Shown piece by piece: positions 45,313 through 48,654 of a stretch of 64,000 nucleotides of DNA (positions are counted from its first letter, which is position 1; each line of letters opens with the position of its first letter). The translations under genes and the position numbers were made by a program. Source of the DNA: a virus; the IMG/VR virus record IMGVR_UViG_3300009157_000018, positions 1 to 64,000 of that record. One strand, 5' to 3'. Under the pieces are notes generated by a model, which ran no database searches, had not been told where the DNA came from, and worked only from the letters and a program-made list of their open reading frames with translations.

Positions 45313-45574
45313 ACGCTATTGTGGCGGTAGTACTCCCCAGGCTATGGTGGGCCAAGGACCGCCGAATAAATGCGCTTACTAGCCTTGCGTCCAAGGCCAC
45401 CCCGCCTCCAGGCTTTCTACTAAAGTGCCTATTCCCTCAGCGCGTAGTCCAAGGAGCAGAGGCCCGAAGGCATGCTCCCGGTTAAAATAAGGTCAGGATG
45501 GATCACTGCAGGTCTCATCAACGCACCGGTATCTACTTGCCGGAGGCTCTCTCTTGGCCTACTGACCTTATAAA

Positions 45575-45659
45575 TGGTGGAGGCGCCGACGAGTTGCACA
45601 TCGGGTCCGAAACCGTTCTCTTGCGAGGCTTACAGCTTCGTCGAACCTATCTCACCCCC
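45575..45659 (-). ncRNA. mini-tmRNA: tRNA-like domain only, no tag ORF
   Basis: 5' GGGGGTGAGATAGGTTCGAC and 3' GGACCCGATGTGCAACTCGTCGGCGCCTCCACCA match ssrA ends; G3-U70; 9-bp P2 capped by a GCAA hairpin. Confidence 0.8.
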
Positions 45660-45663
45660 AGGT

Positions 45664-45738
45664 TGGCTGGCACGGAAGGGATCGAACCTTCGAATACACG
45701 GTTAACAGCCGCGCTCTTTACCGCTCAGACACATGCCA
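45664..45738 (-). tRNA. tRNA-Asn(GUU)
   Basis: loop CTGTTAA, U1-A72, G73. Confidence 0.88.
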
Positions 45739-45901
45739 ACGCTAATGGCGAACACGATCAATGTTTCGGTGCGGTCCATATCACGATAGTACCTCAGGTG
45801 ATCGACCCTTCGCTACGTTGAACCCTATCCTAGTTCGCCTAAGCCAGCGTTTGAACAGGGGCGACCCGTCAACCTCTGGCTGTATAAATGATGCTGCTAG
45901 A

Positions 45902-46042
45902 TTATCTGGACCTAGGAATCGACCGTCGCCTTAGAGGTCGTCTAATGTCCCTAACCTGAAATGCATTAAGCCTAGCCTTCGGATTGAATAATCCGATCTT
46001 AGGCTTATAAGAACGGGGAACTCTAAAAAATTTCCCAGGCAT
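45902..46042 (-). CDS. 46-aa very basic Arg-rich protein
   Basis: SD AGGGGA; MPGKFFRVPRSYKPK...RRPLRRRSIPRSR. Confidence 0.6.
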   Translation of the reverse strand: MPGKFFRVPRSYKPKIGLFNPKARLNAFQVRDIRRPLRRRSIPRSR

Positions 46043-46109
46043 AATATCCCCTAATCTGTTGGTCAGCGTCATCCTCATATCTGACCTGTCAGCCCCTCTA
46101 TACTCCATT

Positions 46110-46420
46110 CCGAGTGCCCTAGCACTTTAGGTATAGAACCTTGTGGCCGTTGCCACGCTGCTGACTTCCCGTCGTGGATTCTCCCAAGTCTGTGTCCTTT
46201 AATTTCCAGACTATATCCAGCTCGCGGGAAGCGATAATGGATAGTTGTGAAAGCCACAACAAGAGTCACCACTATAAAATACCTTTGGGGAGTTTATGGG
46301 AAGGTGTACACCACTACTCTTGCTCTTGCAAGTCCTGCTCCCCAAAGGCAGTTAAATTGGCTTCGCGGGTTTCTAGTAAGACCCCAAGCCAGTTACCTTC
46401 TGCCACAACTAGAACACGGC
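46110..46420 (-). ncRNA. putative ~310-nt structured ncRNA of unknown family
   Basis: terminal stem GTGTTCTAG/CTAGGGCAC, long-range TTGTGGC/GCCACAA, at least 6 hairpins, complementary loops. Confidence 0.6.
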
Positions 46421-46613
46421 GGTAACGAATAAATGAGGTAAGGCTTGCCTGGATACGCTACCCATGACCAAGGCGTCCGTCCAGGGCGATGGAATCCAAG
46501 CCATCGCCGTGCGTGGGGAGGAGGTACCCCACACCGTATTCGCCAATTGTTAAAGTTGCTGTGACCCCGGCCGGGTTCTCCCTTGGTTCGCTACCAGAGC
46601 CACAGCAAATAAT

Positions 46614-46631
46614 TGGTACGTCCTACAGGAA
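46614..46631 (-). pseudogene. 3' remnant of a deleted tRNA
   Basis: TTCCTGT-AGGACGT-ACCA only. Confidence 0.5.
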
Positions 46632-46632
46632 A

Positions 46633-46709
46633 TGGTAGGGACCCCGAGAGTCGAACTCGGCTAAACTACCTTATCAGAGTAGCGCTCACGACCGGCCTGC
46701 CCGATCCCT
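46633..46709 (-). tRNA. tRNA-Ile(GAU)
   Basis: loop CTGATAA. Confidence 0.85.
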
Positions 46710-46710
46710 A

Positions 46711-46788
46711 TGGTAGCCTCTCATGGAATCGAACCATGCTCTGAGCCGCTTATAAGACGGATTCCCTCTACCAGAGAGAACAGAGGCC
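46711..46788 (-). tRNA. tRNA-Ile(UAU)
   Basis: loop CTTATAA. Confidence 0.8.
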
Positions 46789-46796
46789 ATTCTGAT

Positions 46797-46870
46797 TGGT
46801 TGCGGGTACGAGAATCGAACTCGTTATCCACAGGTTATGAGCCTGGGCAACCCACCAGGGTCTACCCGCG
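46797..46870 (-). tRNA. tRNA-fMet(CAU)
   Basis: loop CTCATAA; C1:A72 mismatch. Confidence 0.8.
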
Positions 46871-46878
46871 AAGATCAT

Positions 46879-46952
46879 TGGAGCAGATAGCCGGGTTCGA
46901 ACCGACGATTCCTGCATGGCACGCAAGCGTGTTACCACTATACCATATCTGC
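46879..46952 (-). tRNA. tRNA-Gly(GCC)
   Basis: loop GTGCCAT, U73. Confidence 0.88.
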
Positions 46953-46953
46953 T

Positions 46954-47028
46954 TGGCTGCGTCTCTTCGATTCGAACGAAGGGTACACGGGTTCAGAGCC
47001 CGCCGCCTTACCGCTTGGCTAAGACGCA
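46954..47028 (-). tRNA. tRNA-Gln(CUG)
   Basis: loop CTCTGAA. Confidence 0.88.
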
Positions 47029-47139
47029 AAGATGTGTACGGTCTTAAGGCAAGGAGACCATCACAGGAGGTTTACCGCTCTGGCATTGCTGCCCTCTCGG
47101 TCTAACTCAGCACAGCTAGTACACAGACCCGTACTTAAT

Positions 47140-47226
47140 TGGCGGAAGTTGTAGGACTCGAACCCACACGGGCTTTCACACCCATCACTCTTTTCAGGAG
47201 AGCTAAGTACACCAATACGAACTTCC
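47140..47226 (-). tRNA. tRNA-Ser(UGA), atypical C33
   Basis: loop CCTGAAA, long variable arm, G73. Confidence 0.75.
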
Positions 47227-47334
47227 GCGTTTGTTAATTTTGACCCCGGTTACCTGACCACCGAAGTGACCAACCAACCAATCCACCGACTCGCCGGGGG
47301 TCGTTCCAAGGCTGCACCAAGGAGGACAGTGCTA

Positions 47335-47363
47335 ACTGTAACACAGCTCTTTGGGCTTGTCAA
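47335..47363 (-). promoter_or_regulatory. promoter at head of tRNA/ncRNA island
   Basis: TTGACA-17nt-TACAGT with TG extension. Confidence 0.7.
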
Positions 47364-47375
47364 GTGCGAATCGGC

Positions 47376-47411
47376 GCGAGGGACGCCCGGACTAAGCCGA
47401 GCGCCCCCCGC
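47376..47411 (-). terminator. GC hairpin after tail tube gene
   Basis: GCGGGGGGCGCTCGG-CTTAGT-CCGGGCGTCCCTCGC; no U-tract. Confidence 0.5.
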
Positions 47412-47418
47412 AGGCCAT

Positions 47419-48654
47419 CTAGACATGCTTAGTGATGTACCAAGTGAAGTTCTGCGAGTTGGTGAAGGTATATTGCTTCCCAACCTGAGCATCCACTGCT
47501 ACATCTTTCACATCTCCTGTAATCGTCACACCAGACAACACATCGGTTCGAAGAACCTGGTGGGTGTCGGGATGCTTGAATTCCAACTTGATGGCAATGT
47601 CATTTCGGAATGCATCGACGGGGAAATCAGTATCAGTTGTAGCGGTGCTACCACCAATCATGATCTTCTCTAGATCGAAGTCTTCCGCGAAGACAGTGAA
47701 GTTACCCGTTACATCGGCTGGAGTCTGACGCCATGATCCAACCTTTTGGCTACCCATTCCTTCTTCGCTCTGGGCGTTGAAGTTCATGGTTGCGTCAACG
47801 CTCTGCATACCTCTCACTTGCATGCCATTAGGGGCGTTTGCAGTGATGGTAACAGGGATATGATAGTAACCACGAATAGCTGCAGGACTTACGGTGTCCT
47901 TGGCTTGGAACGGATCAGGAGTCGTGCCACCAGTACGCTGGTAAGACCACGCGAACTGAGTGCCGTTAGCGATCTGGGCAAGGATCGTCGCGTTGGTAAT
48001 CGAAACAACCGTACCGCTACATACAAAGTCGTCATTTTCCAGAAGATAAGTGGTAGAACCTGATGGCTGAGCCATCTGGGCGCTAATCAAGAAGTTTCCA
48101 GAAGCCTGCCCACGCGTTAGCGCAATAGCAGTATTCGACAATGTATAGACGGCCTGGCTAGCACCTGATGCTGTCTGATTATCAACTTGAACAAATCGCT
48201 CAAATGCGGTCTTGTTGTCCGCAGTCAGATCGAAGGTCTCCGTTGCCGATGCATTGGTAGCCGCTTGAATACGGTAACTACCGACTGTTGCCTGCCGAAC
48301 GTAAACGCTCTGCAACCATGCAGTACGAGCAGTGTTTCTCTGCATCATTAGAACGTCAACATCAGCGTTGCCAAGCATATCCTGAACAGTCTTATTTGAC
48401 CAGGTATGCGAAGGATCGAAGTTCGCAAACATCGAAATCAATCGAGCATTGACTAAGTTGGCGTCAATAGGTAGCGTGACATCAGGAGAATCGAAGCTGA
48501 TACCTACAACGGTTTCGTTTCCGATTTCCTTTTCCACGGTATTTGGCCGCTGAGCATTCGTGTTAGCAGACTGTACACGGCGAGCCTGTGAACTAGCTGC
48601 TGGAGTGACAATAAACGGCGCTAAGTTTGCTGGGTCTTGTGATAGACGGCCCAT
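47419..48654 (-). CDS. major tail (tube) protein
   Basis: position after tail terminator; beta-rich; two related halves (EIGNE/GMGSQ ... DVT). Confidence 0.7.
   Translation of the reverse strand: MGRLSQDPANLAPFIVTPAASSQARRVQSANTNAQRPNTVEKEIGNETVVGISFDSPDVTLPIDANLVNARLISMFANFDPSHTWSNKTVQDMLGNADVDVLMMQRNTARTAWLQSVYVRQATVGSYRIQAATNASATETFDLTADNKTAFERFVQVDNQTASGASQAVYTLSNTAIALTRGQASGNFLISAQMAQPSGSTTYLLENDDFVCSGTVVSITNATILAQIANGTQFAWSYQRTGGTTPDPFQAKDTVSPAAIRGYYHIPVTITANAPNGMQVRGMQSVDATMNFNAQSEEGMGSQKVGSWRQTPADVTGNFTVFAEDFDLEKIMIGGSTATTDTDFPVDAFRNDIAIKLEFKHPDTHQVLRTDVLSGVTITGDVKDVAVDAQVGKQYTFTNSQNFTWYITKHV

Follow-up and report, generated by a model that had tools for sequence, protein, structure and literature searches.

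Does the longest tRNA-free gap of a phage tRNA island encode one large and elaborately folded RNA, or do smaller elements lying side by side give that appearance? The question is raised by positions 46110-46420 in a virus sequence (IMG/VR record IMGVR_UViG_3300009157_000018), which a first-pass annotation, made from the letters alone, described as an ornate non-coding RNA of about 310 nt held together by kissing loops and pseudoknots. ROOL (RF03087) and GOLLD (RF01998) are large, multi-helix non-coding RNAs that are often found near phage tRNA islands, and many GOLLD members exceed 800 nt (PMC12286853). A new ornate RNA or ribozyme of 300 nt in a phage tRNA island would be notable beside them if it were true, but the evidence does not support it. 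On balance, the stretch is probably not one 310-nt RNA but a pair of neighbouring spacer cassettes of the tRNA operon, non-coding and each folding independently.

Genomic Setting of the Gap

The sequence comes from an uncultured soil phage, represented by a 91-kb record estimated to be 73% complete; sequences related to this phage are likewise from soil metagenomes. The window, by which we mean the whole stretch of DNA that was analysed, comprises positions 1 to 64,000 of that record. Within the window, ARAGORN predicts 29 tRNA genes, all on the minus strand, forming an island flanked by a tail-tube-like gene (47419-48654, minus strand), the product of which has a weak match to Phage_tube_2, and by an ORF of 1379 amino acids. 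The 894 nt between tRNA-Ile(GAU) and tRNA-Asn are the largest tRNA-free gap of the island, and the 310-nt stretch lies inside it (Table 1). tRNA-Asp and tRNA-Trp were not found by ARAGORN among the 29 tRNAs of the window (1-64000), and tRNA-Asp(GUC) sits between Arg and Ala in two relatives, L003 and L008; the explanation is either that these tRNAs have an atypical form in the window or that its set is incomplete.

A promoter-like site lies upstream of the tRNA block, although the number of such matches found equals that expected from shuffled sequence and is thus at chance level. No terminator-like site, again judged by consensus matches, was found between the promoter-like site and the cassettes, and the RNA sense was therefore taken to be that of the minus strand. 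Folding does not decide the strand: the plus strand (z -4.79) folds about as well as the minus strand (z -4.14 for 46420-46110), so the assignment comes from the tRNAs and not from the fold.

Table 1. Features of the Ile-Asn gap and its surroundings, with positions in the window.
Feature	Position	Strand	Remark
Promoter-like site TTGACA-17-TACAGT with TG	47335-47363	-	Upstream of tRNA block; consensus match only
tRNA-Ile(GAU)	46633-46709	-	Upstream flank of gap; ARAGORN
Ancestral spacer hairpin directly after tRNA-Ile(GAU)	46555-46632	-	Aligns with Ile-to-Asn spacers of L003, L007, and L008
M1, upstream neighbour cassette, 121 nt, multi-hairpin	46434-46554	-	z -1.88
M2, variable cassette, 153 nt	46281-46433	-	Own 5' hairpin, arm A, arm B
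P1 5' strand (46409-46417) and P2 5' strand (46402-46408)	46402-46417	-	Pairs verified; inside M2
M3L, 221-nt cassette kept in relatives	46060-46280	-	Long stem closing three-way junction
P1 3' strand (46114-46122) and P2 3' strand (46141-46147)	46114-46147	-	18-nt insert between
M4, downstream variable cassette, 313 nt	45747-46059	-	z -1.2
Conserved leader AUUAGCGU directly before tRNA-Asn	45739-45746	-	UAGCGU common to L003, L007, and L008
tRNA-Asn(GUU)	45664-45738	-	Downstream flank of gap; ARAGORN and Rfam

Presence and Absence of the Cassettes in Relatives

Logan contigs from four soil runs (X1, X5, X6, and X7), each from a different study, were aligned to 45400-47400 at a likeness of at least 80%. 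Position 46434 is joined directly to 46280 in the X1, X5, and X6 contigs, with M2 absent, and X7 skips 160 nt at M2, with six other letters in between. What is missing from this slot in all four relatives includes the 5' strands of both P1 and P2 together with arms A and B, whereas the 3' partner strands of P1 and P2 remain in the relatives that are without M2. The adjoining M3L is kept, with nine substitutions and 10 gap positions (~91% identity), and this conserved unit extends to 46060, that is, beyond the 3' end that had been claimed for the RNA. In X6, the contig of which has a loose end at 46102, the region of the P1 and P2 3' strands reads CUAAAGGGCAC where the window has CUAGGGCAC. X7 does have, at another slot, sequence homologous to the initial ~85 nt of M2, directly after a tmRNA-like element that is described below, between 45574 and 45464; this relocated copy has GUUCUAG, arm A, and UUUAAC but is without arm B. 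It is because relatives keep the second half of the 310-nt stretch and lack or relocate the first that we read the stretch as two cassettes.

The flanking pieces behave in the same modular way. M4 is skipped in X1 and X6, where 46060 is followed by the four letters AAGG and then by 45746, the base with which the tRNA-Asn leader starts; X7 has 97 other letters in place of M4. In relatives, the homologue of 45744-45885 is found in a different contig, with loose ends, flanked on either side by a tRNA-like sequence. Since M2 and M4 are skipped, replaced, or relocated in relatives, the gap is a mosaic of exchangeable cassettes. X1 and X5 show two differences from M1 over its 121 nt, and X7 shows one over 46441-46548; of all the sequence near the stretch other than tRNAs, M1 is the best conserved. 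Both M1 and the tRNAs stand above M3L in conservation, and M1 may have a stronger claim than the 310-nt stretch to being a functional RNA. Elsewhere in the aligned region, X1 and X5 have seven other letters where the window has 47029-47138; in X1, 286 other letters take the place of 46789-46876 (tRNA-Met), and X7 has 163 letters in place of 46712-46876.

The conservation of M3L is no higher than recent common descent predicts. Six of its nine substitutions are listed, of which four fall at unpaired bases and two convert G-C to G-U, and among the three of 10 gap positions listed, the one-nucleotide deletions at 46205 and 46231 are in or beside loops. This pattern, seen for six of nine substitutions and three of 10 gap positions, is a thin indication that would be compatible with selection for structure.

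At greater distance, the cassettes are no longer detected. Homologues of the tail-tube-like protein number 84 and span 27-94% identity; just one falls below 48%, and the closest (P0001-P0022) are at 64-94%. The loci read for distant comparison (L003, L007, and L008; tail-tube identity 52-56%) share the tRNA order Gln-Gly-...-Ile-Asn-Phe-Tyr..., and only 82-129 nt separate their Ile(GAU) from Asn. These short spacers match both ends of the gap, aligning with the hairpin that follows tRNA-Ile and sharing the leader motif that precedes tRNA-Asn (Table 1); 46554-45747 (~808 nt) is thus a lineage-specific insert. Structured gaps in tRNA arrays are common in relatives, at 100-420 nt and with z down to -4.6, although several spacers have z near 0. 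One of them, a 225-nt spacer in L003 (15853-16077, plus strand), folds at -99.2 kcal/mol with z -4.57, and its sequence is unrelated to the cassettes of the window.

Neither the covariance model built for M3 (46110-46280; model R1) nor that for M2 (model R2) matched credibly anywhere else in the window or in relatives with tail-tube identities of 52-58%; the top score, 14.3 bits, was for a wrong-strand alignment in which the model was mostly deleted. A blastn comparison of the region with 50,697 phage records found no match, and searching loci L002-L013 with the gap, by nhmmer and by blastn, found nothing; the same holds for genome contigs scanned by tail-tube alignment and by 25-mer and for a single-protein scan of viral contigs. 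Of four exact 20-26-mer patterns sought in viral contigs, three had no match and the fourth had a single one (L014/L015), which was taken as chance, having only 20 bases in common with the window, no tRNAs nearby, and a position apparently inside a gene. Nor was a second copy of any of the pieces found in the 91-kb genome; each is single-copy.

Folding of the Stretch

All 10 nested helices listed in the first-pass annotation were found, as standard pairs, in their places on the minus strand (P1, P2, A, B, D, E with its inner UCGC/GCGA, F, G, and GAC/GUC); P1 has 9 bp including two G-U pairs, and P2 has 7 bp. The stretch is also more stable than chance, with a minimum free energy (MFE) of -121.7 kcal/mol, a z of -3.68, and none of 100 shuffles as good. 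For comparison, 36 coding-control windows of 170 nt taken from the genes of the phage had z of -0.58 +/- 1.0, with a minimum of -2.69.

The end duplex of P1 and P2 has an energy of -31.2 kcal/mol against -19.9 +/- 4.4 in shuffles and was matched by only 3 of 300; as the ends were chosen after the fact, this excess is only moderate evidence. The probability of P1 and P2 falls from 0.85-1.0 locally to 0.08 and 0.26 with the whole 894-nt gap folded, and in the fold of M3 alone their 3' strands form the local hairpins GUGC/GCAC and GUGGC/GCCAC. The complementarity of P1 and P2 between the cassettes is real in this genome but neither conserved nor required.

Other parts of the ornate fold fare less well. 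Arms D (GUUGUG/CACAAC) and G (CCACG/CGUGG) and the GAC/GUC helix have ensemble probabilities of about zero, their bases pairing instead among themselves in one stem of ~21 bp, and the best fold that contains all the proposed helices is 15.5 kcal/mol above the MFE. The GGGAA loop consequently exists only in a disfavoured fold. The kissing loops thus cannot be upheld: the arms they require have next to no probability, and loop-loop complementarity of at least 5 nt arises in 23 of 300 shuffles (8%).

Each of the two cassettes folds on its own. M2 opens with a 5' hairpin, GUUACC/GGUAAC, around the P1 and P2 5' strands; next comes arm A (UGGCUU/AAGCCA), and arm B, of 12-13 bp (CCUUUGGGGAG/CUCCCCAAAGG), holds a short tag-like reading frame that is taken up below. 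M2 alone folds at -51.5 kcal/mol (z -2.13), which, like the value for M4, is inside the coding-control range. In M3L, the ~21-bp stem (46160-46271), which has bulges and three G-U pairs, closes a three-way junction whose other arms are E (46214-46243) and F (46187-46212); 3' of the junction are small hairpins containing the 3' strands of P2 and P1, and then a terminal hairpin at 46061-46086. M3 alone folds at -59.3 kcal/mol with a z of -3.52, below all 36 coding controls, and M3L as a whole has a z of -3.17. M2 alone and M3 alone together come within 3.4 kcal/mol of their joint fold (-114.2 kcal/mol). At each cassette boundary there is a linker rich in A and U, namely AUUUAU (46434) and AUUUUAU (46280); neither the AUUUWAU linker motif nor UUUAAC was enriched. 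Directly before the tRNA-Asn leader, ~93 nt (45746-45839, minus strand) are closed by an acceptor-like stem of 7 bp, GGCGAAC/GUUCGCC, with an A after it, and neither Rfam nor ARAGORN calls a tRNA in this element.

Coding Potential and Known RNA Families

An 83-amino-acid ORF on the plus strand and ORFs on the minus strand were considered as possible genes and rejected: the short ORFs of the stretch had no Pfam or PHROG family match on either strand, and indels in the relatives shift the frame. Single-nucleotide indels, seen at 46103, 46205, and 46231, argue against coding.

The sequence was scanned by cmscan against all 4,227 Rfam families, at the gathering score and then, with filters relaxed, at E <= 10 on lengths of 1.2 kb and 0.39 kb. 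Only tRNAs passed the gathering score, and at E <= 10, there was only noise, namely OmrA-B at 21.6 bits (gathering score 40) and fragments of microRNA and lncRNA models. Thus none of the families that the first-pass annotation had named for such a scan (Intron_gpI, RNase P, tmRNA, GOLLD, and ROOL) matched at E <= 10. It had remarked that the stretch lacks RNase P CR-I/CR-V, and there was no match to RF00010 or RF00011, models that include CR-I to CR-V, at that threshold. The motif GAUAUAGUC, pointed out as resembling the S strand of a group I intron, is indeed present, but the scan gave no match to Intron_gpI (RF00028), and no partial tRNA adjoins 46110 or 46420. Small self-cleaving ribozymes were likewise not detected by the Rfam scan of the stretch at E <= 10. 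With neither a ribozyme nor a large-RNA match in Rfam, and with the 310-nt stretch not kept as a unit, the suggestion of a ribozyme is not sustained. The wider claim of a structured RNA survives in part: the stretch folds above background and does not code, but it is not one closed 310-nt unit, its 5' half being missing in relatives. The evidence supports the description of the stretch as non-coding, structured above background, and outside known RNA families.

A tmRNA-Like Element and the Tag-Like Frame

The island also contains, at 45575-45659 on the minus strand, an element that in sequence is convincingly like the TLD of a tmRNA, standing by itself, with the acceptor GGGGGUG/CGCCUCC, a G3-U70 pair, a GGAC linker, a T-arm, and ACCA. 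Its match to the tmRNA_permuted model is weak (12 bits), and ARAGORN gives no call. The TLD region is kept in relatives (45574-45747 aligns in X7 with five differences); against phage records, it had a chance match in a portal gene only. A short frame some 100 nt past the TLD (45429-45473, minus strand) ends in ...SLDYALRE*, which resembles the actinobacterial tmRNA tag ending DYALAA. In relatives, it has a synonymous C>U at 45447 but also one-nucleotide deletions at 45465 and 45469, and the frame may be what is left of a captured tag region, or else due to chance.

The stretch itself could then be imagined to supply a message piece in trans for this TLD, with a GCC resume codon and the tag AFGEQDLQEQE, as had been suggested by calling it a detached coding piece of a mini-tmRNA. 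The frame AFGEQDLQEQE* does exist after UUUAACU, the TLD is 620 nt downstream of it, and in X7, the homologue of the 5' part of M2 comes directly after the TLD. However, the frame lies, as the annotation had itself remarked of a predicted stem, inside a helix of 12-13 bp with a probability of about 1.0, and arm B with its frame is missing in every relative, the relocated copy in X7 included. ARAGORN found no tmRNA in the window, even at relaxed thresholds, and Rfam found none in 46050-46440. The proposed tag ends in acidic residues, whereas tmRNA tags usually have a hydrophobic end. Mycobacteriophage DS6A already provides a phage tmRNA that consists of a TLD only, and inhibition of tmRNA, perhaps via titration of SmpB, has been proposed for a similar molecule (PMC4131195); given this precedent, no message piece is needed. 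We therefore regard a role of the stretch as a tmRNA message as extremely unlikely.

Discussion

From this arrangement, we infer co-transcription, processing, stability, and any function of the cassettes along the following lines. M2 is, on this reading, a lineage-specific, exchangeable cassette and M3L an older one, with its ~21-bp stem and three-way junction as the core; both lie within an insert of ~808 nt in an ancestral Ile-Asn spacer of ~85-130 nt. Transcription from the upstream promoter would include the cassettes together with the tRNAs, and the host nucleases that mature the adjacent tRNAs could free them, RNase P acting at tRNA-Asn and further cuts being made in the AUUUAU and AUUUUAU linkers. 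M3L might then persist as a small RNA protected by its stem, by analogy with RNAC and RNAD of phage T4; alternatively, the long stem could be a processing site for a double-strand-specific enzyme.

The T4 tRNA region gives rise to a pair of small RNAs, RNAC and RNAD (species 1 and 2), whose role is unknown (PMC3014915). Of the known systems compared here, these are the nearest. Like them, the cassettes are non-coding and on the tRNA strand, between tRNA genes and with no terminator-like site between. RNAC and RNAD are roughly 120-140 nt in size, to which the M3 core and M2 are comparable. The cassettes differ from the T4 RNAs in having no sequence or model match to them, the Rfam scans of all families giving nothing comparable, in being exchanged between close relatives, and in being known from DNA alone, with no RNA run among the sequencing runs listed for the stretch. 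With ROOL and GOLLD, the stretch shares its position in a viral array, here of 29 tRNAs. ROOL is about 580 nt long, and both families are defined by extensive covariation, whereas the unit claimed here is ~305-310 nt with a conserved part of 221 nt, matches neither model, and is not conserved as a unit. The likeness to tmRNA (RF00023, permuted RF04321) consists of the TLD in the same array and the tag-like frame; the stretch itself is without an ARAGORN call or an Rfam match, and the frame is not conserved in relatives. The long stem that closes an insert within a polycistronic precursor of stable RNAs may also be compared to the leader-trailer helices of rRNA operons (RNase III stalks), but the M3L stem has bulges and G-U pairs, and this likeness is an analogy from general knowledge.

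Two further explanations have to be weighed against a pair of cassettes. The whole ~808-nt insert might be neutral filler, debris of recombination in the tRNA array that is transcribed and degraded and has no function, its hairpins coming from G+C-rich sequence and inherited inverted repeats. The coming and going of cassettes among close relatives and their absence from view at 52-58% tail-tube identity are what such debris would give, as are an M3L no better conserved than its surroundings, M2 and M4 with z values (-2.1 and -1.2) that coding sequence also reaches, and the z near 0 of several spacers in relatives. M3, by contrast, folds better (z -3.5) than every one of the coding controls, the listed M3L substitutions avoid or preserve pairs, and phages from four studies have retained M3L amid the exchange of the pieces next to it; we therefore consider mere filler rather unlikely.

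The other explanation keeps a single, lineage-specific, closed RNA of ~310 nt, in which P1 and P2 close a multi-arm fold with tertiary contacts, perhaps catalytic. It draws on the low z of the stretch (-3.7 to -4.1) and on the end duplex, which is highly probable in local contexts and was equalled by so few shuffles; moreover, if the isolated duplex energies of helix C (-7.2) and of the loop pair (-5.4) are credited to it, the ornate fold is lifted to about the MFE energy. Indeed, a P1/P2 duplex that beats 297 of 300 shuffles is evidence against the two-cassette reading, and the phage could form a closed 310-nt fold. Against this stand the absence or relocation of the 5' half in all four relatives while the P1 and P2 3' strands stay, the near-zero probability of the kissing-loop arms D and G, the low probability of P1 and P2 in the full gap, the lack of any ribozyme or large-RNA match in Rfam, and the continuation of the conserved unit to 46060. 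Such an RNA is improbable. A bolder extension of the two-cassette reading, which we think quite unlikely though less so than the closed RNA, is that M3L, and perhaps M1, found unrecorded families of phage small RNAs within a wider system that exchanges cassettes between slots of tRNA operons, the long closing stems serving as signals for excision and stability.

Read as a pair of cassettes, the locus is a documented case of a phage tRNA operon that grows by gaining and swapping folded non-coding cassettes, the Ile-Asn spacer going from ~85-130 to ~430 to 894 nt across relatives. It also carries a caution, in that long-range helices between adjoining cassettes may mimic a single large RNA. The cassette pair belongs to a known but poorly understood kind, the folded spacers between phage tRNA genes, of which it is a fairly ordinary example, and its bearing on the evolution and processing of phage tRNA arrays is modest.
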